From a bacterium (GTDB lineage Bacteria > Zhuqueibacterota > QNDG01 > CAYUAG01): DNA of 59,822 nucleotides. The notes below the pieces were generated by a model. It was not told the DNA's origin. It made no database searches and saw only the letters and a program-made list of their open reading frames with translations. The DNA lies in the NCBI GenBank assembly GCA_046483025.1, contig JAWODZ010000110.1, positions 1 through 59,822 of the forward strand, written 5' to 3'. Each line of letters opens with the position of its first letter. The first letter of the stretch is position 1. The position numbers were made by a program, and so were the translations under genes. Shown here piece by piece: positions 5,077 through 51,241 of the stretch.

Positions 5077-5086
5077 TATATTAAAT

Positions 5087-19920: not shown

Positions 19921-19925
19921 ATAAT

Positions 19926-20597: not shown

Positions 20598-20608
20598 TAG
20601 GATTACAA

Positions 20609-22111: not shown

Positions 22112-22126
22112 TGGCATAAATGTTGC
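22112..22126 (+). promoter_or_regulatory. sigma-54 (-24/-12) promoter candidate
   Basis: TGGCAT-aaatg-TTGC lies 55 nt upstream of the receiver gene at 22181 and directly downstream of the NtrC-type activator gene. Confidence 0.65.
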
Positions 22127-22180
22127 CTTTTAATAGATTAAGATTGCAAAATATAATAATTATCATAAACGGAGGGTACT

Positions 22181-23808: not shown

Positions 23809-23824
23809 TGGCAAAGAATTTGCA
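23809..23824 (+). promoter_or_regulatory. sigma-54 (-24/-12) promoter candidate
   Basis: TGGCAA-agaat-TTGCA lies 50 nt upstream of ATG 23874. Confidence 0.62.
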
Positions 23825-23873
23825 ACAGTTATAAATGTGAAATTGAAATATACATATTATGGAGGAGATAGAG

Positions 23874-26399: not shown

Positions 26400-26408
26400 T
26401 ATTCCTTT

Positions 26409-27083: not shown

Positions 27084-27389
27084 ATGTTTAAAATAACGGA
27101 TTATATCCCAAAAAATAAACTAAACGAAATATGTCAAAAATATCATATAATAAAAATTTCGCTTTTTGGTTCTGCTTTACACGGCGATTTAAAACCAGAT
27201 AGTGATATTGATCTTTTGGTAGAATTTAAAAAGGGGATGACACCCGGACTTATTACCTTATGTGGTATAGAAAACGAATTGACAGCTATGATTGGTCGAA
27301 AGGTTGATTTACGTACGGTTGATGATTTAAGTCGATATTTCAAAGATGAAGTAGTCAACAATTCCGAGGTTCAATATGTCGCCGCATGA
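27084..27389 (+). CDS. mntA: MNT-type nucleotidyltransferase antitoxin (MntA, type VII TA)
   Basis: 101 aa with LFGSALHGDLKPDSDIDLLVEF (GSx10SDxDLLV). It overlaps the HEPN gene by 14 nt. Confidence 0.8.
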   Translation: MFKITDYIPKNKLNEICQKYHIIKISLFGSALHGDLKPDSDIDLLVEFKKGMTPGLITLCGIENELTAMIGRKVDLRTVDDLSRYFKDEVVNNSEVQYVAA

Positions 27390-27720
27390 TTTAAACAGGT
27401 TAAAACATATGCTAGACGCTGCATTGGAAGCACAAGAGTTTATGAAAGATGTTACCCAGGTCTCATTAGCCGAGGACAGAAAAACAATCCAAGCAGTGAT
27501 TCGTTCATTGGAGCTTATCGGAGAGGCAGCAGCAAAAATTTCAAATGAGTGCAAAGAATCTCAACCTGAAATTCCCTGGAAAGATATTATTGGTATGCGT
27601 AACTGGCTCATTCATGCCTATTTTGACATTGATTATGATCATATTTGGAATACAATCCATAAGGATTTACCGGTTTTAATCCCGAAATTGAAAAAACTAT
27701 TGAAAGAAGTTGGAAGTTAA
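27376..27720 (+). CDS. hepT: HEPN/DUF86 toxin (HepT)
   Basis: 114 aa. The R-x4-H HEPN motif is present in MRNWLIHAYFDIDYDHIW. Confidence 0.8.
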   Translation: MSPHDLNRLKHMLDAALEAQEFMKDVTQVSLAEDRKTIQAVIRSLELIGEAAAKISNECKESQPEIPWKDIIGMRNWLIHAYFDIDYDHIWNTIHKDLPVLIPKLKKLLKEVGS

Positions 27721-27740
27721 GTATAAAAACCCGCAAAAGT

Positions 27741-27826
27741 GGTAATCCAGGGATGAAGATTGCAATATGGATCCCCGACAGACTTGTGCCCGCATGTTTT
27801 AGGCGGGTAAGCATTCGGTTATGACA
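27741..27826. repeat. hairpin repeat unit, copy A (right-half type, long-loop variant)
   Basis: ggtaatccagg...ggatccccgacagacttgtgcccgcatgttttaggcgggtaagcattcggttatgaca. It is near-identical in layout to copy D. Confidence 0.75.
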
Positions 27827-27975
27827 GGAAAAAAAGAAATTTATTTCAGTCATTTTAATTATATCGCAACTCAGGTTCGGTATCGGGATCGCAATTGAGT
27901 TAAATCACGGATACACCCCATTGGATAAATTTGTTTCTAAATATAAATTTTGAGACAGTTTAAAACATCCTACAG

Positions 27976-28037
27976 GGTGAACACGAATTGCACACAGATC
28001 ATTTTTATTCCGTGAACATCTGTGTTAATCAGTGGCT
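27976..28037. repeat. CACAGAT-type hairpin repeat related to the 4981-5076 inverted repeat
   Basis: acacagat/atctgtgt form an 8-bp stem. ttattccgtgaacatctgtg resembles ttaatccgtgtatatctgtg at 5055-5074. Confidence 0.5.
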
Positions 28038-28085
28038 TATTATTAGAACATTTTAAGACACAAGTTGCTGTGTGAAGATGCATCA

Positions 28086-28122
28086 CCGGGTGTTTTAAGT
28101 GAACAGGAATTAAAACACCCGG
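28086..28122 (+). terminator. perfect 12-bp hairpin followed by a T-rich tract
   Basis: ccgggtgtttta-N13-taaaacacccgg is followed by ggttttgtgattttt. Confidence 0.45.
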
Positions 28123-28144
28123 GGTTTTGTGATTTTTCCGATTC

Positions 28145-28226
28145 TGTCATTCCCGAATGTTTGTATCGGGAATCCAGGTGTGTAGGTTGCAGGATGGATC
28201 CCCGACAAAAACATTCGGGGATGACA
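28145..28226. repeat. hairpin repeat unit, copy B (TGTCAT...ATGACA termini)
   Basis: tgtcattcccgaatgtttgtatcgggaatccagg...ggatccccgacaaaaacattcggggatgaca. It contains two internal 8-bp stems, attcccga/tcgggaat and atccccga/tcggggat. Confidence 0.85.
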
Positions 28227-28265
28227 AAGGTGGAAGGAAGGATTAGAAGTAATATACGAATAATT

Positions 28266-28550
28266 ATGATATTATACTGTGTATACATCCTTGCAAGTAA
28301 GAAAAACGGTACCTTGTATATTGGAATGTCTTCTGATTTAAAAACTCGTGTGTATCAACATAAAAATAATCTGGTTGAAGGGTTCACAAAGAAGTATGCA
28401 GTCCATAAACTGGTTTATTATGAATGTACTCAGGATGTCAATGAGGCGATAAAACGTGAGAGACAGTTGAAAAAATGGAATCGGGCCTGGAAGATCCGGC
28501 TGATTGAAAAGGAAAATCCAGACTGGAAAGATTTATATGATCAAATATAA
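28266..28550 (+). CDS. small GIY-YIG nuclease-family protein (COG2827/URI-domain type)
   Basis: 94 aa from ATG 28266: YCVYILASKKNGTLYIGMSSDLKTRVYQHKNNLVEGFTKKY...RERQLKKWNRAWK. The upstream 67 codons of the 161-aa ORF are a read-through of repeat copy B. Confidence 0.85.
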   Translation: MILYCVYILASKKNGTLYIGMSSDLKTRVYQHKNNLVEGFTKKYAVHKLVYYECTQDVNEAIKRERQLKKWNRAWKIRLIEKENPDWKDLYDQI

Positions 28551-28558
28551 ACTATTTC

Positions 28559-28640
28559 TGTCATTCCTAAATATATGTATCGAGAATCAAGTGTAGGAGA
28601 TTTCAAAGTAGATCCCCGACAGAGACACTCGGGGATGACA
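28559..28640. repeat. hairpin repeat unit, copy C (diverged)
   Basis: tgtcattcctaaatatatgtatcgagaatcaag...gatccccgacagagacactcggggatgaca. It starts 9 nt after the GIY-YIG stop. Confidence 0.8.
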
Positions 28641-28656
28641 GGAATCCCATTAACAA

Positions 28657-28764
28657 TGTCATTCCCGAATGTTTGTATCGGGAATCCAGGGGTGAGGTTG
28701 AGTGGTAGATCCCCGACAGACTTGTGTCCGCATGTTTTAGGCGGGTAGATATTCGAGGATGACA
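28657..28764. repeat. hairpin repeat unit, copy D (long-loop variant)
   Basis: tgtcattcccgaatgtttgtatcgggaatccagg...gatccccgacagacttgtgtccgcatgttttaggcgggtagatattcgaggatgaca. Confidence 0.85.
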
Positions 28765-28833
28765 TGCGTAAGTATAGGAAAAAAAGATGGTCCACTTCCA
28801 AAGTGGAGTCCACCTCAATCACCACAAAAACTA

Positions 28834-30525
28834 TCAATACCCCGCAGCCTGGCCGTCTTTACGGGATTCAGAAGCACCGTAGTATACTTTATTTTTCCAA
28901 TCATACCGGATCCCCTGATAACCACCAAAACTTCCCACATTAACTTGTATCCTATGACCCATTTTCACCAGTTCCCGCCTCACTTTATAATCAATTCCTG
29001 ATTCAAGAGATACAATACCCCCATTGTTCATTATACTCCCGGTGGGTTGGGAGGAACCTCGATGAAGTATACGGGGAGCATCTCCTGCTTCCTGCACATC
29101 CATTCCGAAGTCTATCATATTAATTACGATTTGGGCTTGTCCCTGAGGTTGAGTTGCCCCACCCATAACTCCAAAACTCATATATGGTTTTCCATCTTTG
29201 GTAATGAAAGCAGGGATAATAGTATGAAAAGGACGTTTATGCGGTTCATAAGTGTTAAAATGACCTTCTTCCAGATTAAATAATTCACCTCTATCCTGCA
29301 GCCCGAAACCCAAACCCGGAGGGCAAAGACCGCATCCCATGCCTCGATAATTACTCTGAATCAGAGAAACCATGTTTCCGTCTTTATCTGCTACAGTCAA
29401 ATATATAGTATCACCATGTTCCAGAATAGGATCACCGGCTTTATATTCCCTGGCAGCACGTTGAGGATCAATCATAGCTCGTCTTTTTGAGGCATATTCA
29501 TCTGATATTAATTCCTGAACAGGAATATCATTAAAATCAGGATCTGCATAAAATTTTGCTCTGTCTTCAAAAGCTAATTTTTTTGCCTCTACAAAATGGT
29601 GGATATAGTCTTTACTACCGAAACCCATTTGTTTGAGATCAAAACCGTCTAAGATCTGAAGAATCTGTAGAGTAGCAATACCTTGTCCATTAGGCGGCAG
29701 TTCCCATATCTCATACCCCCGGTAGTTTATGGAAACCGGTTCAACCCAGTTGGATTCATGATCAGCTAAATCCACATAGGATAGAAATCCACCCACTTTT
29801 GTCATAAAAGCGTCAATAGTGCGCGCAATTTCACCTTTGTAAAAGACATCTCGTCCCCCTTCAGCAATCTTTTTTAGAGTATTGGCCAGGGCAGGATTTT
29901 TGAATACTTCCCCTGGTTTGGGTGCAGGCATAAAGGTTTCTTCAAATCCTGGATAATCTTTCAGATATTTTGCGCTGATCTGCCAGTAATGAGATATCAA
30001 ATCACTAACAGGAAATCCTTGACGAGCATATTTTATAGTAGGGGAGAGTATTTTATTCATGGAGAGATTTCCAAAGCGATCATGAAGTTTAAACCAGCCG
30101 GCAACGCATCCAGGAACAGTTACTGGTAGTGGTCCGTGAGCTGGAATTCGTTTATACCCTTTTTTCTGGAAATACTCTAAGGTCAAAGAATATGGTGATC
30201 TTCCACTTGAATTCAAGCCATAGAGCTGTTGAGTTTCTGCATCCCAAACAATGGCAAATAAATCACCACCCATTCCATTTCCAGTCGGTTCTACTAATCC
30301 AAGCATTGCATTTGCAGCAATGGCAGCATCAATGGCGTTTCCCCCTTTTTTGAGAATATCCAAAGCTACCTGGGTTGATAGAGGTTGACTTGTTGCAGCC
30401 ATTCCATGTTGTGCAATCACTCGTGATCGGGTGGTAAAATTTTTTCCTGTAATTCTGTCAGAGCTGAATACAGAAGTTAAAATCAAAAGATTGACGAGGA
30501 ATACATTTAAAATTTTCATAATCAT
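28834..30525 (-). CDS. ggt: gamma-glutamyltransferase (periplasmic/exported)
   Basis: 563 aa with a signal peptide. The autoprocessing and nucleophile region is EHGDTIYLTVADKDGNMVSLIQSN, and GVMGGATQPQG is also present. Confidence 0.9.
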   Translation of the reverse strand: MIMKILNVFLVNLLILTSVFSSDRITGKNFTTRSRVIAQHGMAATSQPLSTQVALDILKKGGNAIDAAIAANAMLGLVEPTGNGMGGDLFAIVWDAETQQLYGLNSSGRSPYSLTLEYFQKKGYKRIPAHGPLPVTVPGCVAGWFKLHDRFGNLSMNKILSPTIKYARQGFPVSDLISHYWQISAKYLKDYPGFEETFMPAPKPGEVFKNPALANTLKKIAEGGRDVFYKGEIARTIDAFMTKVGGFLSYVDLADHESNWVEPVSINYRGYEIWELPPNGQGIATLQILQILDGFDLKQMGFGSKDYIHHFVEAKKLAFEDRAKFYADPDFNDIPVQELISDEYASKRRAMIDPQRAAREYKAGDPILEHGDTIYLTVADKDGNMVSLIQSNYRGMGCGLCPPGLGFGLQDRGELFNLEEGHFNTYEPHKRPFHTIIPAFITKDGKPYMSFGVMGGATQPQGQAQIVINMIDFGMDVQEAGDAPRILHRGSSQPTGSIMNNGGIVSLESGIDYKVRRELVKMGHRIQVNVGSFGGYQGIRYDWKNKVYYGASESRKDGQAAGY

Positions 30526-34583: not shown

Positions 34584-36047
34584 ATGGAGGCTTTAATGTC
34601 TGAACCCCTTCTATTTGAAATTAGTAAAAAAAATCGAACCGGTTTTACTTTACCAGAACTTGATATTCCCGAAAAATCTCTGTCTGATTTTTTCCCTTCA
34701 GAGGTATGTCGAGCAGAAGAACCTGATTTACCCGAAATCAGTGAATCTGTTGTTATCAGACATTTTATTCATCTTTCAAATTTAAATCATCATGTTGATA
34801 GGGGATTTTATCCCTTGGGTTCTTGTACCATGAAATACAATCCCAAGATTAATGATAAACTCTCCTCTTTACCTGGTTTTTCTGAAATTCATCCATTACA
34901 AGATGAAAAAGATATTTACGGAGCTATTCAAATAATGGGAGAATTAAGTGATTATCTTAAAACTATTTCTGGTTTGGATGGTATCACCTTGCAGCCTTCT
35001 GCCGGTTCACAGGGTGAATTAACCGGAATAAAAATTATGAGAGCTTATCATGAAGATAGAGGTAATCCCCGTAAAATTATTCTTATACCAGATTCTGCTC
35101 ATGGTACAAATCCCGCAAATGTTACTGTTTCCGGTTATAATCTAGTTCAAGTAAAATCAAATGAAAACGGCCTGGTTGATATTGATGATTTGAAAGAAAA
35201 ACTCAATAAAGATGTTGCTGGTTTTATGGTGACAAATCCAAGCACTCTTGGCTTATTTGAAAAGGAAATCAAGCAGATTGCAAAATTAGTGCATGAATCA
35301 GGCGCACTACTTTACATGGATGGAGCAAATCTTAATGCCTTGTTAGGGATTGTTCGTCCTGGAGATATTGGTTTTGATTTAGTACATTTTAATCTTCATA
35401 AAACATTTTCTACACCCCATGGAGGAGGAGGGCCAGGGAGCGGACCAGTGGGAGTAATATCTAGTTTAACAGATTATCTTCCAGTTCCTGTAATATCCAA
35501 AAAAGGCAATACATATCAATTAAACTATAAAAACCCGAAATCAATGGGAAGAATACATGAATTTTTTGGTAATTTTAATGTAATGGTCAAGGCATATGTG
35601 TATATAAGAATGTTAGGATCACCTGGGCTTAAAAGAGTAAGTAAAAATGCAATTATTAATGCTAATTATCTTATGCGGAAGTTAGAAAAATATTACCTGC
35701 TTCCTTATAAACAACATGCAATGCATGAATTTGTTCTATCTGGAGACTGGCAAAAAGAAAAAGGGGTTAAAACACTGGATATTGCCAAACATTTACTGGA
35801 TTTTGGAATACATGCACCAACAGTTTATTTTCCGCTTATTGTCCATGAGGCTCTTATGATAGAACCAACCGAAACTGAATCAATAGAAGAACTCGATAAA
35901 TTTATTGATGCTATGATTAAAATTGCTGAAGAAACGGAGAATAATCCTGAGCGTGTAAAAGCTGCTCCTACAAAAACACCTGTTTCTCGTCTGAATGAAG
36001 GAATTGCCGCCAGAAACCTTGACGTGAAATTTGATAAAGATAGTTGA
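34584..36047 (+). CDS. gcvPB: glycine dehydrogenase (aminomethyl-transferring) subunit 2
   Basis: 487 aa. PLP-lysine context [16 protein letters not shown]. Confidence 0.9.
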
Positions 36048-36056
36048 TAAAACTAC

Positions 36057-37022
36057 ATGAATATTGATATAAAAAAAAAATCATCTGATAACAAAGATAT
36101 TATTCTTGTTGTTGATGATGAAGCTAATAATCGTTTACTATTAAAAACATATCTTACTTCTGAGGGATATAACATAGATATGGCTTCAAACGGTGTTGAT
36201 GCTATCAAAAAGGTTAATGAACTATCACCCAGCATTATTATTCTTGATGTTGTACTGCCGGATATGGATGGCTTTCATATTTGCAGAAAGTTGAAATCAT
36301 CCAAAAATACCAATTTCATTCCTGTTATTTTAGTGACTGCTTTACGTGGAGATGAAGAGAGAATCAAGGGGACCACTGCGGGAGCTGATGATTTTATTAC
36401 AAAACCCTATAACAGAGTAGAGTTAATAACCAGAGTTAAATCATTAATACGTATTAAACACCTTCATAAATCCCTGGAACAAAAATATCATGAATTAGAG
36501 ATTGTTAAAGAAAAATTAAAAAAATTAGCAGTCACTGATGGATTAACCGGATTATTTAATTACAGAGCCTTCAAAAATCAGATTCACTATGAAATCATAC
36601 GATCTAAACGTTTTAATTTACCAGTATCTCTTTTGATGATAGATATTGATCATTTTAAAAGGTATAATGATACTTTCGGACATCCCAAGGGTGATAAAGT
36701 CCTTAAACAATTTTCTGAATTATTAACTGTAAATCTCAGAGAAGTAGATACTATAGCACGATATGGGGGTGAAGAGTTTGCGATAATCCTTCCCGGTACC
36801 AATAAAAAGGCTTCCTTTATTGTTGCTGAAAAGTTACGTAAATTAATAGAAGAATATGATTTTCCATTATCAGAAAAATTACCTGATAAAAAATTAACCA
36901 TCAGTATAGGGATAGCCAGTTTTCCTATTGATGTAGAGGACGAAGAAAATTTAATTTTATCAGCTGATAAGGCTCTTTATAAGGCAAAAAACACTGGTAG
37001 AAACAGATCAGAAACTATTTAA
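36057..37022 (+). CDS. response regulator-diguanylate cyclase (REC-GGDEF, PleD-like)
   Basis: 321 aa. Receiver (ILVVDDEANN, IILDVVLPDMDG, ITKPY). GGDEF active site RYGGEEF, preceded by an RxxD I-site (REVD). Confidence 0.9.
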   Translation: MNIDIKKKSSDNKDIILVVDDEANNRLLLKTYLTSEGYNIDMASNGVDAIKKVNELSPSIIILDVVLPDMDGFHICRKLKSSKNTNFIPVILVTALRGDEERIKGTTAGADDFITKPYNRVELITRVKSLIRIKHLHKSLEQKYHELEIVKEKLKKLAVTDGLTGLFNYRAFKNQIHYEIIRSKRFNLPVSLLMIDIDHFKRYNDTFGHPKGDKVLKQFSELLTVNLREVDTIARYGGEEFAIILPGTNKKASFIVAEKLRKLIEEYDFPLSEKLPDKKLTISIGIASFPIDVEDEENLILSADKALYKAKNTGRNRSETI

Positions 37023-37048
37023 CAAATTGAAGTAAGAGTAGAGCAGTA

Positions 37049-38509
37049 TTGAATTTATTTGCTAAAATAAAATATAACAAGATAACCTTTATTAAAATAT
37101 GGTTACTCACCCTGATATTTATATGGTTGGTTATATTTTTATTTATGTTCATAGTAGATGTAAATCTAATATCTGATGCTACAACACAAAATTCTTATAC
37201 GATATTAGCTCACCTTGATTTAAAGCAATGTTTTGCATTATTTACCATTTTTTTAATAATATCATTTTTAATTACTTATTCTTATTTAACGATATTAAGT
37301 AATTCTCTGAATAAACTGATCGTTAATTCAACAGAAATTGCCAGAGGTAATTTTAATAGTAATAAAATAACTACTGGAAACAAATATTTAGACAGAATTC
37401 AAAAAATGTTTACCTATATGGCAGATGAGATGAAAAGAATAAAAAATATTGATTTATCCGGAATAATCAATTCAAAAAATAAAATTGAAGCAATTCTGCG
37501 TAATATTGTGGATGGAGTAATTGTAACCGATACTCAATATAGAATTTTAATGGTTAATATCGTAGCTGAATCTTTATTCGGTTTTACCGAGGAAAAGGCC
37601 TCTAATAAAAATTTAAAAGATTTAATTAAAAATAAGCAAATTTTGAATCTTTTTAAACAAGTGAGAGATGGAAAACAAACAGATAATGTAACTTTTGATT
37701 TTCGAACAAAAAATATTTCTACAAAGAAATATTTACAGGCTTCTGCATCCAGAATCTATAGTGAAGATAATGAATTCATTGGAATTGTTTCTGTTATTAG
37801 AGATATTACCAAGGAATATGTAGCAGATAAAATGAAGTCTGAACTTGTAACCATGGTAGCACATGAATTAAAATCTCCCTTGACATCTATTTATGGTTTC
37901 AGTGATCTACTTCGTGATTTAAAGGTCAGGAATACTAAGGTCAAAGATTATTCAAATATCATACTAAATGAAACTTCGCGTTTAGTTAAACTGGTTAATA
38001 AATTTCTTGATCTGTCAAAATTGGAAGAAGGTAAAATACAAATACAAATTCATCCATTTAATATTGAACAACTTATTGACAAGATTATCACTTCTTATAT
38101 GTCTACTGCCCAACAGAAAAATATGCAAATAGGAAAGATTTTTTCTACGGAAATCTGTTTAGCATATGGTGACCAGCAGTTAATTGAACAAGTAGTACAA
38201 AATTTATTATCAAATGCAATCAAATACAGTCCTGCCGGATCTGATATAAATATAAAATTACAACAAAAGGAAAATATAATTACAGTCAGTGTAATTGATA
38301 ATGGCTATGGGATACCAGAGGATGCTATTGATAAAATATTCAGAAAGTTCTATCGGGTTAATAAAGCAGATGAAGAAAGCGAAGGTAGTTCCGGTTTAGG
38401 CCTTGCTTTGACCAAAGAAATCTTAGATCAGCATAATTCTCAACTTTCAGTAAAAAGTAAATTAGGAAAGGGATCAGTATTTTCTTTTACTCTACAATGT
38501 GCAGTTTAA
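37049..38509 (+). CDS. membrane sensor histidine kinase (TM-PAS-HisKA-HATPase)
   Basis: 486 aa with a TTG start and two N-terminal TM segments. H-box VAHELKSPLTSIYGF, N-box LLSNAIKYS, G1 DNGYGI, G2 GLGLAL. Confidence 0.88.
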   Translation: MNLFAKIKYNKITFIKIWLLTLIFIWLVIFLFMFIVDVNLISDATTQNSYTILAHLDLKQCFALFTIFLIISFLITYSYLTILSNSLNKLIVNSTEIARGNFNSNKITTGNKYLDRIQKMFTYMADEMKRIKNIDLSGIINSKNKIEAILRNIVDGVIVTDTQYRILMVNIVAESLFGFTEEKASNKNLKDLIKNKQILNLFKQVRDGKQTDNVTFDFRTKNISTKKYLQASASRIYSEDNEFIGIVSVIRDITKEYVADKMKSELVTMVAHELKSPLTSIYGFSDLLRDLKVRNTKVKDYSNIILNETSRLVKLVNKFLDLSKLEEGKIQIQIHPFNIEQLIDKIITSYMSTAQQKNMQIGKIFSTEICLAYGDQQLIEQVVQNLLSNAIKYSPAGSDINIKLQQKENIITVSVIDNGYGIPEDAIDKIFRKFYRVNKADEESEGSSGLGLALTKEILDQHNSQLSVKSKLGKGSVFSFTLQCAV

Positions 38510-38533
38510 TTAACATGATAGGGTTTATAATAT

Positions 38534-40456
38534 ATGAAGAGAAAGAAAATGGATAATTTTTTTAGTGAAAAAAAATTTTTAGTGATTGAATCTGCAGACA
38601 AAATATCAAATCAACTGAAAGAAATTTTGCAAAATACGGATTCCAATATTATAACTATTTCATCAGGCATAAAAGCTATAGAAGAAATTCCCTGTATACA
38701 CCCTGATATCATTATTTCTGACTATGTAACTGATGATATTGTGGGGGCTGAAGTTTATAAAAAATTTATACACAGTAAATCATTAGCTGAGTATCATAAT
38801 ATTCCTTTCATTATAATTTCAGACGATGAGACCCGTCAGAAATACAGACAGGAATTTTATAATTTAGGAATAAGAGGGTGGTTCAGCTATTTTTCCGATC
38901 CTAAAAGATTTAGAGAATGTCTGGAAAATTTTACTGTTGCTGATGAAACAGTAAGAAAAAACAAAGAGCTTAGTCAGGAAATTAAGCGGTCAGAATATAG
39001 ATATAGAGATTTACTTGAAAATGCAAACGATTTTATTTTTACTCTTGATCAAAGTGGAAAATTTGTCTATTTAAATAACCGCTTTAAGCCCTTAACTGGT
39101 TTTAAAAAGAAAGAATGGTTACAAAAAGACTTTTCAGAATTAATAGTAGAAAAAGATCGCATTCGAGCTAAAAAGAATTATCAGCTTGTCCATCAGGGAA
39201 GGGCAAGGATTTTCCAGGCACAAATTAAAAGCAATATTTCCGATTGTTTTATTCTCTCATTTAACATTACTCCTATTTTCGAACACGGATCCATAGTGGG
39301 TTCAATGGGAATTGCCAGAGATGTAACCGAACAAAAGATGATGGAAAATGAAATTTTAGAATTAAAAAATTTCAATGAGAGTATTATTCAAAGTATGGAA
39401 GCCGGGCTTTTAACTGTAGATCTTAATGGTTTTATCACTTCACTTAATACAGGTGCTGAACGCATTCTTGGATGGAAAGCAAAGGAAGTATTGGGGAAAA
39501 AGATAAAATCTGTACTTGTTCCAGATGATGTTGATATACTTCTTATGAGCTCAGAAAAGCCGGGATCATTGCCTTACAGTAGAGAAACTAAATTAACTAT
39601 AAAATCTGGAGACAAAATCTCCATAGGTTTTACAACCACTGATCGTATTGACAATCGTAATGAAAAGGTAGGTACCATAGTTTCTTTTAGGGATATTTCT
39701 GAATTAAAACAGATGCAGAGCGAAGTAAAGAGAATGGAAAGACTGGCTTCACTGGGTATCTTGGCTTCAGGAATTGCACATGAAATAAAAAATCCTTTAG
39801 CTGGAATTAAGAGTTTAAGTCAAACCTGTAAAGAAGAATTTGAATCAGGTGATTCCAGGTTGGAATATTTATCCCGGATTATCAATCAAGTTAACAGATT
39901 AGATGAACTGTTAAAGGCAATTGTAGCTTTTGCCCGTCCCAAACCTCCGGATAGAAAATCATATGATATAAAAAAGGTAATTCATGAAGTTGTTAACTTG
40001 ATTAATAAAAAATTAACAACGAATAACATTAAATATATCGAAGATATGGATGATAATCTTCCTATCGTGATTATTGATCCCCAACAAATACAGCAAGTAT
40101 TTTTAAATCTAATTCTTAATGCAATTGATGCGGTTAATAAAAATGGAGTTATTACAGTATCAGCAAAACCGGTAAAATTTTCTGTACCAAAGTTAATAAA
40201 AAGATCAGATAAGTGGATTAAACAAGATTCATTTGTTCAAATAAATATCACTGATACTGGAAAAGGTATTCCACCTGAAAGATTAGAATCAATTTTCGAT
40301 CCTTTTTTTACCACAAAATCGGATGGTTTAGGAATGGGTCTTTCTATAGTGTATAGAATTATTGAGGATCATCATGGGGATATTGATGTGAAAAGTAAAA
40401 TTAGCAAAGGGACTACGTTTAGTATAACAATACCTGAAGGAGAGTCAGATGAGTAA
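38534..40456 (+). CDS. cytoplasmic sensor histidine kinase with N-terminal receiver-like domain and two PAS domains (NtrB/AtoS-like)
   Basis: 640 aa. H-box GIAHEIKNPLAGIKSL, N-box LILNAIDA, G1 DTGKGI, G2 GMGLSI. The N-terminal domain is receiver-like, but the usual KPF lysine context is not evident. Confidence 0.85.
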   Translation: MKRKKMDNFFSEKKFLVIESADKISNQLKEILQNTDSNIITISSGIKAIEEIPCIHPDIIISDYVTDDIVGAEVYKKFIHSKSLAEYHNIPFIIISDDETRQKYRQEFYNLGIRGWFSYFSDPKRFRECLENFTVADETVRKNKELSQEIKRSEYRYRDLLENANDFIFTLDQSGKFVYLNNRFKPLTGFKKKEWLQKDFSELIVEKDRIRAKKNYQLVHQGRARIFQAQIKSNISDCFILSFNITPIFEHGSIVGSMGIARDVTEQKMMENEILELKNFNESIIQSMEAGLLTVDLNGFITSLNTGAERILGWKAKEVLGKKIKSVLVPDDVDILLMSSEKPGSLPYSRETKLTIKSGDKISIGFTTTDRIDNRNEKVGTIVSFRDISELKQMQSEVKRMERLASLGILASGIAHEIKNPLAGIKSLSQTCKEEFESGDSRLEYLSRIINQVNRLDELLKAIVAFARPKPPDRKSYDIKKVIHEVVNLINKKLTTNNIKYIEDMDDNLPIVIIDPQQIQQVFLNLILNAIDAVNKNGVITVSAKPVKFSVPKLIKRSDKWIKQDSFVQINITDTGKGIPPERLESIFDPFFTTKSDGLGMGLSIVYRIIEDHHGDIDVKSKISKGTTFSITIPEGESDE

Positions 40457-41816
40457 ACCAAATATATTGATTATTGAAGATAACGAAGATATGATCTTCA
40501 CCTTAACCAAGACTTTAAAGAAAGAGGGATATAATGTTCTCTCCTCAATTGAGGGAAAGAAAGGGTTGTCAATTTTAAAAAATAAAATAATTGATCTTGT
40601 TATCTTAGATATTAAATTACCCGATATTAATGGAATTGAATTATTAGATAAAATAAAGGATATCGATCCAGATATTTTAGTGCTTATGATGACAGCAATG
40701 ACAGATGCAAAACCTGCAATTGAAGCTATGAAAAAAGGTGCATATGATTATTTGGTTAAACCATTTGAACTTGATGAATTAAAATTGAATGTTAAAAAAA
40801 TATTAGAAACACACAAACTGAAAATGGAAGTAAGCAGATTACGAAAAGAACATAAAGAACATTTTCCCGAGAATACAATATATGGTGATAGCCAAGCAAT
40901 AGAGGATATTCGGAATTTAATTAACATTGTTGCTAAAACTCCCAAAACATCTGTTTTAATATTAGGGGAAAGCGGTACTGGCAAAGAACTTGTTGCTAAT
41001 GCTATTCATTTTCTGAGCAATAGAGCATCGCAACCTTTTATTAAATTGAATTGTAGTGCAATTCCGGAAAATTTGTTAGAGAGTGAATTATTTGGTCATG
41101 AAAAAGGTGCTTTTACCGATGCACGTACCACGAAAAAAGGTCTTTTTGAATTGGCCCATGGTGGAACAATATTTTTAGATGAGATTTCAAGTATGAAACT
41201 TACCTTACAACCAAAGATTCTCCGGGTTATTGAATCTCAAATTTTTCGTAGAATTGGCGGTACCACAGATATTAATATTGATGTACGGGTAATTGCTGCT
41301 TCAAATACTGATTTACGCAGGCTTGTTAATCAGCAGGAATTCAGAGATGATTTATATTATAGATTAAAAGTTTTGGAAATTAAATTACCCCCTTTACGAG
41401 AACGAAAAGAAGATATTCTGCTGTTGGCGAAATATTATATTCAATTATATAATAAAGAGTTCAATAAAGATATTCAGAAAATTGATAAAAAAACTGAAAA
41501 AATGCTCCATAATTATTCCTGGCCTGGTAATGTGAGAGAATTAAAAAATGTAATTGAAAGAAGTGTGATACTTTGTAATGATGAAATTCTGACTTCAGAT
41601 TATTTACCAATGGAACTCCAGGAGGAAAAATCCCCTGTTGTAAATAAATCATTTGGGGAAGTATCTTTACAGGAAATGGAAAAACAGCATATACTTCATA
41701 TTTTAAAAACAACAGATGGCAATAAATCGAAAGCATCCCGAATTCTAAACATATCACGCTCAACCTTACGAGAAAAACTTAAAAGCTATAAAATTTCAGA
41801 GAGTGACTTAAAATAA
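40449..41816 (+). CDS. sigma-54-dependent response regulator (NtrC/AtoC family) with a variant GAFTDA loop
   Basis: 455 aa. Walker A GESGTGKE, GAFTDA at nt 41106-41123, and the HTH NKSKASRILNISRSTLREKL. It overlaps the kinase gene by 8 nt. Confidence 0.9.
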   Translation: MSKPNILIIEDNEDMIFTLTKTLKKEGYNVLSSIEGKKGLSILKNKIIDLVILDIKLPDINGIELLDKIKDIDPDILVLMMTAMTDAKPAIEAMKKGAYDYLVKPFELDELKLNVKKILETHKLKMEVSRLRKEHKEHFPENTIYGDSQAIEDIRNLINIVAKTPKTSVLILGESGTGKELVANAIHFLSNRASQPFIKLNCSAIPENLLESELFGHEKGAFTDARTTKKGLFELAHGGTIFLDEISSMKLTLQPKILRVIESQIFRRIGGTTDINIDVRVIAASNTDLRRLVNQQEFRDDLYYRLKVLEIKLPPLRERKEDILLLAKYYIQLYNKEFNKDIQKIDKKTEKMLHNYSWPGNVRELKNVIERSVILCNDEILTSDYLPMELQEEKSPVVNKSFGEVSLQEMEKQHILHILKTTDGNKSKASRILNISRSTLREKLKSYKISESDLK

Positions 41817-41961
41817 TCGATACGCTATATGGTCAAAATCAATCCATAAATATCAAATTAACCAATAGTCATTATATAAAAAAAAAATTTTATAATACCT
41901 ATCTTTAATAATTTTAATTATTTAAGAAAATTAAAATTTTGTAAGATGTTGTTATTATTCC

Positions 41962-41976
41962 TGGTACAATATTTGC
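41962..41976 (+). promoter_or_regulatory. sigma-54 (-24/-12) promoter candidate
   Basis: TGGTAC-aatat-TTGC lies 44 nt upstream of the receiver gene at 42020 and directly downstream of the NtrC-type activator. Confidence 0.6.
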
Positions 41977-42019
41977 CAAAATTAATTATAGGAATATAAT
42001 TATCTATTAAGAGTAGACA

Positions 42020-42418
42020 ATGCAAAATAAAAATGAATATAAAAGAATTTTAATTGTAGATGATGAAGAAGATCTTACCTGGAGTATATCACGAAGACTA
42101 TCCCGTGATAATGACAATATTGAAGTACTTAGCGCAAATTCCGGCAAAGGTGCACTGGAGATTCTTTCCCGAAATGAAATTGATCTCCTCATAACAGATC
42201 TTAGAATGCCTGAAATTAATGGATGGGAGCTTTTAGATACAATTAAAGAAAAATATCCAAATACATTAGTGATTATCATGACCGCTCATGGTTCCATTGA
42301 AGTTATTGACGCTTTAAACCGCTGGGGAAAAGCAGGGTATATTGAAAAACCCTTTGATATGAATGATCTTAGAAAATTAGTATATGCTTTTCTAAAAGAA
42401 AAAGATAAATCAAAATAA
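42020..42418 (+). CDS. CheY-like single-domain response regulator
   Basis: 132 aa with ILIVDDEED, LLITDLRMPEINGWE, MTAHGS and IEKPF. Confidence 0.88.
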   Translation: MQNKNEYKRILIVDDEEDLTWSISRRLSRDNDNIEVLSANSGKGALEILSRNEIDLLITDLRMPEINGWELLDTIKEKYPNTLVIIMTAHGSIEVIDALNRWGKAGYIEKPFDMNDLRKLVYAFLKEKDKSK

Positions 42419-42430
42419 AGAGTCTGTTAA

Positions 42431-43957
42431 ATGAAAGAAGAAAATCTGGATAATTCTACTGAAATAAGTCCTTATAATACTCAAATAAAAGTTTTAGGAA
42501 TAGGCGGGTCAGGAAATAATACCATCAATCATCTGATGAAAAAAAAGTTAAAGGGCCTGGAAACGGTTGCAATCAATACGGATGGACAACATTTAGTGGA
42601 TATAAATTCAAATAAAAAAATATTGATTGGGAAAAATATAACAGCAGGTTTAGGTTCTGGTGGAGACCCAGAACTAGGTGAACGAGCTGTCCGAGAATCA
42701 AAACAGGAAATTATCGATATCATACAGGAAACCGATTTATTATTTATAACCTGTGGATTCGGAGGCGGAACCGGGACAGGTGCCTCTCCGGTGGTTGCTA
42801 AATTAGCCAGAGAAGAAGGCATTTTAACGGTAGCAATTGTCACCATGCCTTTTGCTGAAGAAGGTATTATCAGATGGGAAAATGCAAAGATAGGTCTTGA
42901 AAAACTTAAAAAATTTGTTGATACTTTAATAGTGCTTGAAAATAATAAATTAATTGATCTTTATTCGGAATTAACTTTAAAAAAAGCCTTTGAAGCTTCA
43001 GATGACATTTTAATTAATGCACTGGAAGGCCTTTCCAGTATGGTTTTAAAAAGAGGATTAGTGAATCTTGACTTTGCAGATATAAGTATTGTTATGAAGG
43101 ATGGCCCTAATGCCTTTATCGGGTTAGGGGAAAGTGATTCGGAAAACAAAATACATGAGGCAATTAAAAGAGCCATAACCCATCCTATGATGGAACAGGA
43201 TATTTCAGGGGCCCAAAGTGCCTTGATTCATATAACTGGCGGTCCTAGCCTCAAATTAAAAGAATCCAGACAAATAATAAAAATTATTACACAAAAGTTA
43301 GATCCTAATGCAAGAATTATTTGGGGAGCTACAATTCAAAAAAATTTACGCAACACGGTAAAAGTACTGCTTATTGTGAGCGGACTACAAAAAGAAAAAG
43401 AGATCGAAGAGAGAGTGAGTGAGGCTGAGTCTGAAGATACCATAATAAATGAGTTTGATGAATCCTCAATAATTACAAATGATGAAGATATGTATGATAT
43501 AAAAGAATCAATACTTGATTCAGATATTGAAGAAGATTCAGAAGAAAAAAGTCCCAAGAAAATTAAACAGTCCGGATTAATTTTTTATAAAATATTCAAA
43601 GAAGAAGCAGCAGGTGATCTACAACGGTTTGATAGAGCTATACAGTTGTTAAGGGAAGATCCTAAAAACCGGAGAGGAGTACTTGAGGCTCGTCAGGCTT
43701 GTAAGCTTTTACATGCATCTGCTGAAATGTTTGGGTTTGATGAAACAGCTCAGCTACTTGTTGCTATTGAAACAATATTATCCCGAGTGAGAAGCAGGGA
43801 AATGAAAATTACCAAAAAAATTATTGATTCCATAACCTTAGCCATGGAAATGGTTGTTGATTTAATAGAAAATAAGACAGATGGTATGGGTGAGACCGGA
43901 TATATTGTTGACAGATTAAATGAATTAAAATCTGAACAACTTAATACTTATAAGTGA
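42431..43957 (+). CDS. FtsZ-family tubulin-like GTPase fused to a C-terminal CheA-P1-like HPt domain
   Basis: 508 aa. FtsZ hallmarks: IKVLGIGGSGNN, INTDGQHL, GLGSGGDPELG, tubulin signature GFGGGTGTGASPVVA, T7 loop NLDFADI and the FtsZ C-subdomain. An acidic E/D/S-rich linker follows. Residues 385-508 or so (nt 43583-43954) align by eye with CheA P1, and a His is retained at nt 43712-43714. Confidence 0.8.
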   Translation: MKEENLDNSTEISPYNTQIKVLGIGGSGNNTINHLMKKKLKGLETVAINTDGQHLVDINSNKKILIGKNITAGLGSGGDPELGERAVRESKQEIIDIIQETDLLFITCGFGGGTGTGASPVVAKLAREEGILTVAIVTMPFAEEGIIRWENAKIGLEKLKKFVDTLIVLENNKLIDLYSELTLKKAFEASDDILINALEGLSSMVLKRGLVNLDFADISIVMKDGPNAFIGLGESDSENKIHEAIKRAITHPMMEQDISGAQSALIHITGGPSLKLKESRQIIKIITQKLDPNARIIWGATIQKNLRNTVKVLLIVSGLQKEKEIEERVSEAESEDTIINEFDESSIITNDEDMYDIKESILDSDIEEDSEEKSPKKIKQSGLIFYKIFKEEAAGDLQRFDRAIQLLREDPKNRRGVLEARQACKLLHASAEMFGFDETAQLLVAIETILSRVRSREMKITKKIIDSITLAMEMVVDLIENKTDGMGETGYIVDRLNELKSEQLNTYK

Positions 43958-44017
43958 TTCTATCTTCTAAATTTTACTTGACTTTTTATAAAAATGATAG
44001 TACATTTTTTATTAACT

Positions 44018-44091
44018 GGGCGATTAGCTCAGGTGGTTAGAGTGCTTGCTTGACATGCAAGAGGTCACTGGTTCAAGTCCAGTATCGCCCA
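44018..44091 (+). tRNA. tRNA-Val (anticodon GAC)
   Basis: 74-nt cloverleaf. Acceptor GGGCGAT/ATCGCCC, D stem GCTC/GAGT, anticodon stem CTTGC/GCAAG with loop TTGACAT, T arm ACTGG-TTCAAGT-CCAGT. CCA is not encoded. Confidence 0.9.
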
Positions 44092-44143
44092 CTATGTAGA
44101 ATTACATTTTTTAGTTAAAGCAGTTAAAGGAATAAATAATTAT

Positions 44144-46063
44144 TTGAGTAAAATAAATATACAATTTACAAATGGAAAAGAGGGGACATATAAAAAGGGA
44201 ATCAGATTAAATAACATATTAGAAGATCTTTTTCCTAATACCTTTAGAGATTATATTGCAGCCAGGATAGATGATAAATTAGTAGATTTATCAACCCCTT
44301 TAGAGCAAGATTCAACACTTCATTTATTAACTTGCCAGGATGAACAAGGCCTTAAAGTATTTTGGCATAGTGCTTCCCATATTTTGGCTGCAGCAGTAAA
44401 AATTTTATACCCTGAGGTACAATTAGGGATTGGACCTGCTATATCAAATGGATTTTATTATGACTTTAAATTTCAGGAAAACATCAGTATAAATGATTTT
44501 CCGGAAATTGAAAATAAAATGCAGGAAATTGTAAACAACAATGATCATTTTGAAAGAAAAACAGTTACTAAACAAGAAGCAATATCTATTTTTAAAAATC
44601 GGAATGAACACTTTAAAATTGAATTAATAAATGATTTAGAAAATAATTCAGTTAGTCTATATTCCAATGGAAATTTTATAGATCTTTGCCGTGGACCGCA
44701 TGTACCCTCAAGCGGATATATTAAGTTTTTCAAACTTTCAAGTCTTGCTGGAGCATATTGGCATGGAGATGAAAGAAACCCCATGATGCAGAGAATATAT
44801 GGAATTGCCTATCCTGAAAACAAAACCTTGAAAAAACACATTAAATCCATTGAAGATGCTAAGAAACGAGATCATCGTAAATTAGGGAAAAAGCTAAACT
44901 TATTTAGTTTCCACGAAGAGGCGCCAGGGTTTCCGTTTTGGCATAATAACGGAATGATAATCATTAATGAAATTGTTAATTATGTTCGTATTATCTTAAG
45001 AAAACACGGATATCTTGAAGTTAAAACTCCCATGATTTTAAATGAGGATCTGTGGCATAAAAGTGGTCATTGGGAAAACTATAAAAATAATATGTATTTC
45101 ACTGAAATTGATGAAAAAAATTATGCCATTAAACCCATGAATTGTCCGGGTGGATTATTGATATACAATGAAAACTTACATTCTTTTCGTGAACTTCCCT
45201 TAAAATATTCTGAACTTGGCATTGTTCACAGACATGAAAAATCCGGTGTTCTACATGGTCTATTCCGAGTGCGTCAATTTACTCAGGATGATGCTCATGT
45301 ATTTTGCACTCCGGATCAGTTAACAGATGAAATAGATAAACTTATTGATCTGGTGTATGAAATATACAATACTTTTGGTTTTTCTGAATTTTTGGTTGAA
45401 CTTTCCACCAAACCGTCAAAATCAATCGGTACTGATGAAATGTGGGAAAGAGCAGAAACAGCATTGGCAAGTTCTCTGCAACACAAAAAAATCACTTATC
45501 AGTTAAATAAAGGTGAAGGGGCTTTTTACGGGCCTAAAATTGATTTTCATATAAAAGATTCCTTAGAAAGAATGTGGCAATGCGGAACTATTCAGGTTGA
45601 TTTCTCTATGCCGGAACGATTCAATCTTGAATATGTTGGGTCCGATGGCAACAAACATCGACCTGTTTTAGTGCACCGTGCTATTTTAGGATCTGTAGAA
45701 AGGTTTATTGGTATTCTTATTGAACATTATGAGGGTAATTTCCCGGTATGGCTATCACCTGAACAATGCAGATTAATACCAGTGAGTGAAGACCATCGAA
45801 GTTATGCTGATACTGTTAGTTTAAGATTAGTTGAACATAATATCAGATGCACAGTTGATAATAGAGATGAAAAAGTCGGGTATAAAATCAGATCAGCAGA
45901 AAATCAGAAAATCCCTTATATGTGCATTGTGGGCGATAAAGAGATTAATGACAAAACAGTTTCTTTGAGAAAAAAGAAAAAAGGTAATTTAGGAGAAATC
46001 AAAGTAAATGCGTTGATTAAAGAAATAACACAACATATTAAAAGGAGGACTAATAATCGGTAA
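44144..46063 (+). CDS. thrS: threonine--tRNA ligase
   Basis: 639 aa with a TTG start. Class II motif HRHEKSGVLHGLFRVRQFTQDDAH, plus TGS and editing N-terminal domains. Confidence 0.92.
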   Translation: MSKINIQFTNGKEGTYKKGIRLNNILEDLFPNTFRDYIAARIDDKLVDLSTPLEQDSTLHLLTCQDEQGLKVFWHSASHILAAAVKILYPEVQLGIGPAISNGFYYDFKFQENISINDFPEIENKMQEIVNNNDHFERKTVTKQEAISIFKNRNEHFKIELINDLENNSVSLYSNGNFIDLCRGPHVPSSGYIKFFKLSSLAGAYWHGDERNPMMQRIYGIAYPENKTLKKHIKSIEDAKKRDHRKLGKKLNLFSFHEEAPGFPFWHNNGMIIINEIVNYVRIILRKHGYLEVKTPMILNEDLWHKSGHWENYKNNMYFTEIDEKNYAIKPMNCPGGLLIYNENLHSFRELPLKYSELGIVHRHEKSGVLHGLFRVRQFTQDDAHVFCTPDQLTDEIDKLIDLVYEIYNTFGFSEFLVELSTKPSKSIGTDEMWERAETALASSLQHKKITYQLNKGEGAFYGPKIDFHIKDSLERMWQCGTIQVDFSMPERFNLEYVGSDGNKHRPVLVHRAILGSVERFIGILIEHYEGNFPVWLSPEQCRLIPVSEDHRSYADTVSLRLVEHNIRCTVDNRDEKVGYKIRSAENQKIPYMCIVGDKEINDKTVSLRKKKKGNLGEIKVNALIKEITQHIKRRTNNR

Positions 46064-50601: not shown

Positions 50602-50880
50602 ATGGATATAGAAAAATTTGAAATCCTTGAACAAAAAATTTTAAAACTTATTACACGTTTAAGTGAATTAGAAATGGAGAATAATGATTTAAAACAAAAA
50701 TGTAAACAATTGCTAGCAAAAATTGATGATAAGGAAAATATGATTCAACAGTTAAAAGTTAATAATAAAACGAGTATTCAAATGCAAAACGAAATTGAAA
50801 ACTATAAAAATAATGAAAATAAAGTAAAATCAAAAGTTGAAAATTTACTCATTAAATTAAAAGAGTTTGATGAGTTTTAA
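50602..50880 (+). CDS. zapB: ZapB-like coiled-coil cell-division protein
   Basis: 92-aa coiled coil. The N-terminus FEILEQKILKLITRLSELEMENNDLKQK resembles ZapB, and the gene sits directly upstream of zapA. Confidence 0.5.
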   Translation: MDIEKFEILEQKILKLITRLSELEMENNDLKQKCKQLLAKIDDKENMIQQLKVNNKTSIQMQNEIENYKNNENKVKSKVENLLIKLKEFDEF

Positions 50881-50941: not shown

Positions 50942-51241
50942 ATGACTGATAATATGAAAACAATAAAAATAAGAATTTTTGGAAGTGAATATATAATTCG
51001 GAGTGAGGAAAAAACTGAAAGAATTAAAGAAGTAGCCAGTTATGTTGATAAAAAAATTCGTGAAATTGATAATCAGGTTCGTGTTGACTCTTCTTTGAAA
51101 GTTACAATTCTGGCTTGTATTAATATTACTGGTGAGTATTTTGCTGAAAAGGAAAAAAACGAGAAGCTTCGAATTAAGCTGCAGGAAAAAATGAATAAAA
51201 TTAATTCATTATTAGATAAAAAATTATCAGAAACAAAATAA
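50942..51241 (+). CDS. zapA: cell division protein ZapA
   Basis: 99 aa. IRIFGSEYIIRSEE...ASYVDKKIREI...TILACINITGEYF fits the ZapA pattern. Confidence 0.72.
   Translation: MTDNMKTIKIRIFGSEYIIRSEEKTERIKEVASYVDKKIREIDNQVRVDSSLKVTILACINITGEYFAEKEKNEKLRIKLQEKMNKINSLLDKKLSETK

Follow-up and report, generated by a model that had tools for sequence, protein, structure and literature searches.

In a 59,822-nt stretch of bacterial DNA (contig JAWODZ010000110.1 of the GenBank assembly GCA_046483025.1, referred to here as the window), a cluster of six genes at positions 36057 to 43957 places an NtrC-type regulatory system in front of a gene pair that codes for a receiver and for an FtsZ protein with an extra C-terminal domain. 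We propose, with a probability of roughly 60%, that the NtrC-type system drives sigma-54-dependent transcription of the receiver and of this FtsZ paralogue, and that the C-terminal tail of the latter, a pseudo histidine phosphotransfer (HPt) domain, serves as a docking module. From the conserved sequence elements described below there is good support for the first part of this proposal, i.e. that the phosphorylated activator would turn on sigma-54 transcription of the two genes. The genes and elements in question are the following:

36057..37022, + strand: REC-GGDEF diguanylate cyclase (Pfam Response_reg 99 bits, GGDEF 164 bits; NCBIfam GGDEF domain 186 bits)
37049..38509, + strand: HK1, membrane PAS histidine kinase (Pfam PAS, HisKA, HATPase_c)
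38534..40456, + strand: HK2, cytoplasmic kinase, degenerate REC-PAS-PAS-HisKA-HATPase (Pfam)
40449..41816, + strand: NtrC-type enhancer-binding protein (EBP), REC-AAA+-HTH_8 (Pfam)
41830..41846, no strand assigned: candidate enhancer (upstream activating sequence) TGGTCAAAATCAATCCA, imperfect TGGTCA-N5-TGACCA palindrome, best match in the gap (9/12)
41962..41976, + strand: sigma-54-type -24/-12 element TGGTACaatatTTGC (pattern search), 43 nt before the REC start codon
42020..42418, + strand: single-domain receiver (REC; Pfam Response_reg 93 bits)
42431..43957, + strand: FtsZ plus tail, one open reading frame (ORF; Pfam Tubulin and FtsZ_C, weak Hpt match)
42431..43405, + strand: FtsZ GTPase core, amino acids (aa) 1-325 (Pfam Tubulin 158 bits, FtsZ_C 100 bits)
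43406..43567, + strand: acidic disordered linker with the motif MYDIKESIL (43490-43516, aa 354-362; translation)
43568..43957, + strand: CheA-P1-like five-helix domain without phospho-accepting His (Lys425, codon 43703-43705; phmmer, AlphaFold, Foldseek)

Conservation of the locus

The six genes, their domain content, the 8-nt overlap of the HK2 and EBP genes and the 203-nt gap containing TGGTAC-N5-TTGC had been described in an earlier reading of this DNA made without database searches (the sequence-only reading), and all of them were recovered here from the ORF list and by Pfam. The spacings between the ORFs are, in order, 26, 24, -8 (HK2/EBP overlap), 203 and 12 nt. Of the gaps of 9-26 nt given earlier, those within the unit hold, and the value of 9 nt is the distance between the upstream gcvPB gene (34584-36047) and the first gene of the cluster.

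Related loci were surveyed with a profile of the C-terminal tail, using one genome per species. This survey returned 16 loci with 55-94% identity, one of them labelled candidate division KSB1 and the others 'uncultured bacterium'; below these, identity falls abruptly to ~30%, and the matches found there are ordinary CheA P1 domains. Eight further loci of this type came from metagenomes, two from NCBI assemblies and two from look-ups of the exact protein. A metagenome scan with the single protein P0012 gave no match, and one with the tail alignment gave 11 loci. Searches of a set of 5.8 billion proteins with the tail only yielded seven short fragments and a wider profile gained none, the full-length relatives being obtained with a full-length profile. 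The window-type loci (L001-L018, L086-L093, L101 and L102) are called group A in the following.

The linkage of REC-GGDEF, two kinases, EBP, gap, REC and FtsZ with tail is present in about 28 related loci with protein identities of ~55-94%. When the loci of the survey were searched by tblastn with the window proteins, every one of them had, within the limits of its contig, the gene order gcvPB, REC-GGDEF, HK1, HK2, EBP, gap, REC, FtsZ core, tail, thrS, infC, and the other group A loci share this order from gcvPB to thrS. The receiver gene lies next to the FtsZ gene and in the same orientation in all group A loci recovered. FtsZ and tail form a single ORF in all loci except two. L002 is an error-ridden assembly, and in L001 a lone in-frame TAA in the linker (5047-5049 of that locus) has led to core and tail being called as two genes, with the frame continuing across it; this TAA may reflect a nonsense mutation or an error of sequencing, or the gene may be genuinely split.

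Exhaustive HMMER searches and the full-length profile revealed further proteins consisting of FtsZ and tail. Those of group B (L094, L098, L099 and L100) are 37-43% identical to the window protein and 545-610 aa long, and those of group C comprise ~650-855 aa. The relatives carry the name 'cell division protein FtsZ' and come from metagenome-assembled genomes (MAGs) labelled bacterium, Calditrichaeota or KSB1. No assembly accession was shared between groups A and B among the loci sampled. The linkage of EBP, REC and FtsZ-tail genes, for which a survey of relatives had been suggested, is kept in every related locus recovered and appears in a more distant group, too. Judged by sequence, the family has two or three architectures and is kept in many genomes of uncultured bacteria of the KSB1/Calditrichota type, so that it is not a one-off fusion.

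A conserved sigma-54-type promoter in front of the receiver gene

The element in the gap, TGGTACaatatTTGCc, has the GG and GC dinucleotides at the correct spacing of the sigma-54 consensus (TGGCAC-N5-TTGCW). TGGYAY-N5-TTGC occurs four times in the window as compared to 0.38 expected occurrences, a number that none of 100 shuffled sequences reached. Of the four sites, three lie between genes and just before a gene on the + strand, and two of these three directly follow EBP genes. Furthermore, Y-GG-YAY-N5-TTGC is present in the gap between EBP and REC in 21/21 group A loci, 41-75 nt before the receiver start codon, as well as in 4/4 group B loci. When 16 of these gaps were aligned, the -24/-12 element supplied the sole invariant block (GG-A...TTGC), and the remaining sequence of the gap has diverged among the loci.

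Several observations weigh against transcription of the pair from this element. The sigma-70-like sequence TTGCCA-16-TATAAT at 41973-42000 matches at 11/12 positions, overlaps the -12 element and has the best sigma-70-type score in the 13.8 kb scanned; no terminator-like site was found between EBP and REC, making read-through possible; and no RpoN box was detected either in the window (60 kb) or in any of the 102 loci fetched, which as genome fragments make the lack of a match uninformative for the whole genome. The receiver and ftsZ genes could accordingly be transcribed constitutively, either from the sigma-70-like promoter or by read-through, with the EBP acting elsewhere, and the AT-richness of the genome, in which TATAAT-like strings are common, would be in line with this. 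However, sigma-70-like matches in the scan occur at the level of shuffled sequence (77 as compared to 73 expected). Moreover, relatives with a higher GC content have no TATAAT at the equivalent position, but 25/25 loci retain TGGYAY, a stretch that is not part of any sigma-70 promoter, and the arrangement of EBP gene, gap, -24/-12 element and REC gene occurs a second time in the window (20609-22558). Constitutive transcription of the pair appears to us quite improbable.

The second two-component/sigma-54 module, at 14917-23610, has the same layout. It comprises the site TGGTATgaactTTGC (14917), two hybrid PAS kinases, a HisKA-only ORF and an NtrC-type EBP (20609-21979), followed by a gap with TGGCATaaatgTTGC (22112), a REC gene (22181-22558) and a REC-PAS-HisKA gene (22555-23610). 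Another -24/-12-like site, TGGCAAagaatTTGC, is found in the region 23809-25277, 36 nt before an ORF with outer-membrane beta-barrel and TPR domains, and may be a second target of the EBP encoded at 20609.

Candidate enhancer and activator

The element TGGTCAAAATCAATCCA lies 132 nt upstream of the TGG of the -24 region, and its score of 9/12 was reached by 12 of 500 shuffled sequences. An equivalent 17-bp element (TGnTCn-N5-TGACCA) is located just past the EBP stop codon in ~21/25 loci, 23/25 loci scoring at least 8/12, and its distance to the -24 region is 120-200 nt across loci. This is roughly where, according to the sequence-only reading, repeats bound by the EBP would have to be looked for (80-150 nt upstream of the promoter). 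The element is close to a perfect palindrome in L099 (TGGTCGAAAATTGACCA) and L100 (TGGTCAAAATCTAACCA), with 11/12 matches in these two loci and in L090. In the clade of the window the conserved TGACCA half-site is on the opposite strand. The element is thus conserved in position yet free in orientation, the behaviour expected of an enhancer, and 41830-41846 is treated here as a candidate site at which the neighbouring activator may bind. No match to the IHF consensus was seen by eye in the AT-rich stretch between this element and the promoter.

The EBP matches the Pfam domains REC (96.5 bits), Sigma54_activat (228.8 bits) and HTH_8 (49.8 bits) as well as AAA_lid_14, and its best NCBIfam matches are AtoC and NtrC, all of them below the equivalog cutoffs. 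Its sigma-54 contact loop reads GAFTDA, as in 15 of the 16 sequences compared (window and 15 orthologs), the remaining one having GSFTDA, while the second EBP of the window has the canonical GAFTGA. GAFTDA is listed in a regulome study of D. vulgaris among the loop variants that keep activity and is assigned there to the sigma-54 regulator DVU2106 (PMC4641369); in another paper the effect of the G-to-D change in this loop is regarded as unknown (PMC10714721).

With NtrB/NtrC-type systems acting on sigma-54 promoters (glnAp2, AtoSC, ZraSR) the cluster shares a kinase and a REC-AAA+-HTH_8 activator as well as a GG/GC -24/-12 promoter with an upstream palindromic candidate enhancer. It differs from them in its target, a cytoskeletal gene pair as compared to metabolic, transport or flagellar genes; its unit also contains a second kinase and a diguanylate cyclase, and the contact loop of its activator is GAFTDA. 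The DVU2106/orp system of Desulfovibrio vulgaris has the same GAFTDA loop and target operons filed under 'cell division', a likeness by description; however, DVU2106 is a one-component regulator, and its target operons have no listed FtsZ or HPt-like domain (PMC4641369).

The tail is a P1-like domain without the phosphorylated histidine

The match of the tail to Pfam Hpt (22.0 bits) stays below the gathering score of 24.6, as do those of P0008 (18.8 bits) and of the group B proteins (21-24 bits), so that sequence and fold searches against the PDB were needed to confirm the HPt label. By phmmer, the P1 domain of T. maritima CheA was found (entries 2LD6 and 1TQG, E ~1e-8). An AlphaFold model built with seven homologues has five helices and a pLDDT of 87, and its top Foldseek matches are CheA P1 domains with TM scores of 0.69-0.88, including the CheA3P1-CheY6 complex. 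On the basis of this model the assignment of the fold is sound, and it is specifically P1-like.

In the HMMER alignment, His45 of CheA pairs with Lys425, whereas the sole His of the window's tail, His428, pairs with Lys48 of CheA. The His-equivalent position is K in 26 and R in one of 27 window-type copies; three residues further on, at the position of His428, the same 27 loci have H (10), L (8), Y (5), Q (3) or R (1). Among 19 database proteins from groups A, B and C mixed, the His-equivalent residue is N, K, T, A, M or I. No invariant His was found anywhere in the tail in the alignments of the relatives, in which the Glu of the His-Glu pair is retained. Since the phospho-His site is occupied by Lys or Arg, the tail cannot accept phosphate in the canonical way, and by sequence it is a pseudo-HPt, presumably a protein-docking module.

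This result bears directly on the idea that the tail is a working HPt and FtsZ itself a component of a phosphorelay, with phosphate passing from kinase via receiver to FtsZ or in the reverse direction. The Pfam match of 22 bits and the true homology to CheA P1, the presence in the window protein of a His only three residues from the canonical site and the name 'CheA' given by JGI to the split copy all seem to speak for it. However, the canonical site is K or R in 27/27 copies, His428 is replaced by L, Y, Q or R in 17/27, an invariant tail His is missing, and by Pfam neither of the two kinases is of the hybrid type, for which an HPt would be required. A phosphorelay through FtsZ is largely refuted by these sequences, and we consider it extremely improbable. 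Thus, of the two-tier circuit proposed in the sequence-only reading, the transcriptional tier is supported by the conserved -24/-12 element, the candidate enhancer and the EBP, while the claim that the FtsZ tail is equipped for phosphotransfer is not.

Compared to CheA P1 and other HPt domains, the tail has the same five-helix P1 architecture, significant sequence similarity and the Glu, but it carries Lys or Arg instead of His, lacks the domains P2-P5 and is fused to the C-terminus of FtsZ. In this respect it resembles AHP6 of Arabidopsis, which has the HPt fold without the His, binds partners and passes on no phosphate; AHP6, however, is a free-standing eukaryotic inhibitor, unlike the tail, which is tethered to a polymer-forming GTPase. 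No description of an FtsZ-HPt fusion was found in the literature, including a term search within a paper on the evolution of FtsZ and tubulin.

The FtsZ core and its relation to the division protein

The FtsZ part scores 375.3 bits against the TIGR00065 ftsZ equivalog and thus passes the cutoff of 295.2. Its GTP-binding signature GGGTGTG ('GFGGGTGTGASP') and the NLDFAD of the T7-loop ('NLDFADI') are both invariant in the alignment, and the core is predicted from these features to be GTPase-competent. The best PDB match of the core is FtsZ1 of M. jannaschii with 351 bits, entries recognised as bacterial FtsZ reaching at most ~269 bits. Aligned with this archaeal FtsZ1 (Methanocaldococcus jannaschii, PDB 1FSZ/1W58), the core matches from end to end and the C-terminal region is unlike. 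The host is bacterial in the present case, as indicated by sigma-54, the SLT transglycosylase in sister loci and the MAG labels KSB1/Calditrichaeota. An archaeal origin of the core, suggested by the sequence scores, is to be seen as a lead and not as a result.

A terminal peptide for the binding of FtsA, ZipA or SepF is missing, the C-terminus being formed by the helical domain of 130 aa. The linker motif recurs as [IM][FY]DIKE[ST]IL in P0001, P0003, P0008 and P0019, the rest of the linker being variable. It is loosely like the tether-binding peptide DIPxFL of canonical FtsZ and may be a relic of it. The gene lies outside a dcw or ftsQ-ftsA-ftsZ context and is flanked by two-component genes and by tRNA-Val/thrS in all loci. 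The tRNA gene, a tRNA-Val(GAC) to which the sequence-only reading makes no reference, is located at 44018-44092 between the FtsZ gene and thrS.

One may ask whether this protein is the division FtsZ of the lineage, or one of several, with the cluster tying ordinary division to signals from nutrition or redox state. Its score is above the FtsZ equivalog cutoff, and its relatives are named 'cell division protein FtsZ' by NCBI and JGI. Moreover, the FtsZ-tail groups in KSB1/Calditrichota MAGs are all outside dcw, with no canonical copy seen in the short fragments searched, and ZapA and ZapB are encoded 6.6 kb downstream. On the other hand, activator-gated sigma-54 control would be unusual for an essential gene, the terminal FtsA/ZipA/SepF-type peptide is absent, and at least three FtsZ-tail groups in KSB1-labelled proteins or KSB1-type MAGs point to paralogy. 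Overall, a role as division FtsZ seems unlikely to us, and we continue to treat the protein as a putative, signal-controlled paralogue. The ZapB (50602-50880) and ZapA (50942-51241) genes follow pheT and precede the RNase Y gene, and ZapA is found at the same position in L102. The organism hence encodes classical Z-ring accessory proteins, which is compatible with the presence and with the absence of another FtsZ alike.

Accessory members of the family that exist in addition to the dcw copy are known, for instance FtsZm of magnetotactic bacteria. We know of no accessory FtsZ-family protein with an HPt-like domain or a dedicated sigma-54/two-component switch. FtsZl-1 and FtsZl-2 of Makarova & Koonin (PMC2875224) are likewise extra tubulin/FtsZ-family proteins outside dcw with a proposed role in membrane remodelling; these known members are divergent or truncated, whereas the protein studied here is a full-score FtsZ. 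Among the database relatives, P0009-P0011 (744-840 aa) have two complete FtsZ units in tandem (two sets of Tubulin and FtsZ_C), which could be real fusions or merged gene calls.

Receiver and proposed mechanism

The translation of the receiver contains the complete active-site set ('VDDEED', 'ITDLRMP', 'MTA' and 'EKPF'). The ortholog alignment shows little or no variation in the DD pair, in the D of 'ITDLRMP' and in the K of 'EKPF'; at the Thr position of 'MTA' it has T or S. In the PDB, the receivers of AdeR, FleR, NtrC and Spo0F match best with 57-64 bits, CheY entries scoring 42-45 bits. The earlier designation 'CheY-like' is thus too specific, the scores being nearer to the NtrC, AdeR and Spo0F receivers, and by sequence the protein is a generic single-domain REC with an intact set for phospho-acceptance.

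Our proposal can be put as follows. The input would be provided by the membrane PAS kinase, the cytoplasmic PAS-PAS kinase, the receiver-diguanylate cyclase and the NtrC-type activator. As suggested by the conserved cis-elements, one or both kinases would phosphorylate the activator, which would then bind the palindrome-like element past its own stop codon (41830-41846) and activate sigma-54 RNA polymerase at 41962-41976, so that a two-gene transcript for a phosphorylatable receiver and an FtsZ paralogue would be made on signal only. At the level of sequence and fold, the FtsZ so made has a full GTPase and polymerisation core, an acidic linker and, instead of a tether-binding peptide, a P1 bundle without His. 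In a third and hypothetical step, the co-expressed receiver would be the likeliest ligand of the tail, bound in a phosphorylation-dependent manner, and would gate assembly, localisation or partner choice of FtsZ; the Lys/Arg at the former His site could contact the acyl-phosphate of the receiver. The diguanylate cyclase, and with it cyclic di-GMP, would be a parallel output of the same kinases.

The receiver is proposed as the ligand because P1/HPt domains are receiver-binding modules, because its gene adjoins that of FtsZ in every window-type locus and because it is only in the window-type group that the former His site always carries a basic residue. The tail would accordingly be a reader of the phosphorylated receiver on the FtsZ polymer, the docking of which would switch assembly, membrane attachment or partner choice. 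We put this forward as a tentative suggestion that is rather unlikely to be correct in this specific form. Several findings pull in the other direction. The most conserved surface of the tail is formed by helix D and the loop 'DGxGETGYIVDRL', and the face of P1 that binds receivers in known complexes is that of helices A and B, not helix D and the loop. In group B the His-equivalent residue is not basic and the orthologous receiver is encoded four to five genes upstream of FtsZ, and in one group C locus FtsZ with tail has no receiver nearby.

These findings would fit a different arrangement, in which the transcriptional control is the same and the tail binds another partner, such as a kinase catalytic domain, a P1-like protein or a membrane tether, with the receiver having its targets elsewhere. 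The binding of P1 to P4 in CheA provides a model for an interaction of the tail with a kinase catalytic domain. The strongest conservation on helix D and the D-E loop, the second P1-like protein encoded next to FtsZ in group B and the group C tail without a nearby receiver all speak for such a partner. However, the receiver adjoins FtsZ and is co-oriented with it in every group A locus recovered, K/R in place of the His is a feature of group A specifically, and solved complexes of P1 with receivers are among the best fold matches. Another partner of the tail is in our opinion a possibility to be reckoned with, if distinctly less than an even one. Under the proposal as stated above, the tail remains a docking module whose most plausible ligand would be the receiver.

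Group B loci and the cellular role

The sensory genes of group B code for a REC-GGDEF protein, a HAMP-PAS kinase, a REC-PAS-PAS kinase and an EBP that is 62% identical to that of the window; the one EBP translated, from L094, has GAFTDA. The same palindrome follows the EBP stop codon, and TGGCAY/TGGTAT-N5-TTGC precedes the next gene by 41-49 nt. This next gene, however, opens an output operon that is longer than that of the window. The operon starts with a REC-PATAN protein and goes on with a ParA/MinD-type ATPase, in many cases another REC, an SLT lytic transglycosylase (found in three of the four loci whose context is complete), a protein of ~640 aa, FtsZ with tail and another protein, with IMPDH flanking. 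Identity between the REC part of its first protein and the window receiver is 44-46%. The ~640-aa (642-aa) protein contains another P1-like domain without His (hhalign against the tail profile, probability 90%, E 1.8e-6). A 223-aa protein of group B was considered as HPt-like and rejected, its match to the tail profile having a probability of 0.8%. Neither the 642-aa nor the 223-aa protein had a match in the PDB.

From the sequence comparison, group B is a deeper paralogous or orthologous group with a longer output operon, and the window-type cluster looks like a trimmed version of an older NtrC-type switch driving a small operon for cytoskeletal and cell-wall functions. The cellular role is probably, by analogy, an inducible septation or envelope-remodelling event, since the sister operon adds a ParA/MinD ATPase and a lytic transglycosylase. 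A looser analogy is offered by the action of PatA on the divisome of Anabaena. In PatA the PATAN domain is N-terminal and REC C-terminal, which is the reverse of the REC-PATAN order in group B. PatA interacts with the divisome and destabilises it (PMC7380572). Like the proteins discussed here it is a receiver protein tied to FtsZ-based machinery, in that case in differentiation, and the group B REC-PATAN protein is related in its REC part to the window receiver, which itself has no PATAN domain.

Sensory genes and genomic surroundings

The diguanylate cyclase is a constant member of the unit, an ortholog being present in every group A and group B locus that reaches far enough upstream. Its GGEEF active site and the RxxD inhibitory site five residues upstream ('REVDTIARYGGEEF'), which had been noted as intact in the sequence-only reading, are legible in the translation. 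HK1 has two hydrophobic N-terminal segments and the H-box 'AHELKSPL' in its translation, and its length among the relatives ranges from 486 aa (window) to 703 aa. In L102 it is encoded at 3890-6001, and in many relatives REC-GGDEF and the point where HK1 homology begins are ~840 nt apart. Judging from these lengths, a sensor region at the N-terminus of HK1, probably a periplasmic one, seems to be lost in the clade of the window. HK2 has the H-box 'AHEIKNPL' and orthologs in all loci (48-87% identical). Its REC match is weak (29.0 bits as compared to a cutoff of 30.2), with 'ES' in place of the acidic 'DD' pair.

Upstream of the cluster thiC, def, ptsI and gcvPB are co-directional with the sensory genes, which are probably part of a longer transcription unit including gcvPB; because of the 9-nt gap to gcvPB, this unit probably starts further upstream. 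When 35900-44300 was scanned with Rfam for a cyclic di-GMP riboswitch or another RNA in the gap, tRNA-Val was the only match.

Two further regions of the window are mentioned for completeness. At 26025-26975 a single-domain REC (26025-26399) precedes an ORF of 188 aa (26409-26975) that holds a CheB methylesterase domain on its own, and the two form a split CheB-like pair. The region 27376-30000 has an ORF for a HepT-like toxin (27376-27720) and one for a GIY-YIG nuclease (28065-28550) at the edge of a GC-richer patch (0.41 as compared to ~0.30), which may be a small mobile or defence islet.

Significance

Each component of the cluster is of a known kind, i.e. the NtrC-type system, the sigma-54 promoter, the GGDEF cyclase, the single-domain receiver, FtsZ and the P1 fold. 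What was not found described in the literature is a full FtsZ fused to a P1 domain without His and placed constantly behind an activator-gated sigma-54-type promoter. The results also correct the tempting view that FtsZ itself takes part in phosphotransfer, and they place a protein similar to archaeal FtsZ1 in a bacterial setting. Furthermore, the family is a concrete and testable case of a bacterial pseudo-HPt domain.

Normally, FtsZ activity is under the control of positioning systems and of regulatory proteins dedicated to it. With an FtsZ copy that is gated by a signal and has a docking end derived from signalling proteins, a cytoskeletal event would come to depend on a signal from the environment in a new way. 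If the tail is indeed a reader of the receiver, two-component signalling would, in addition to its control of transcription, be wired directly to a bacterial polymer of the tubulin family.

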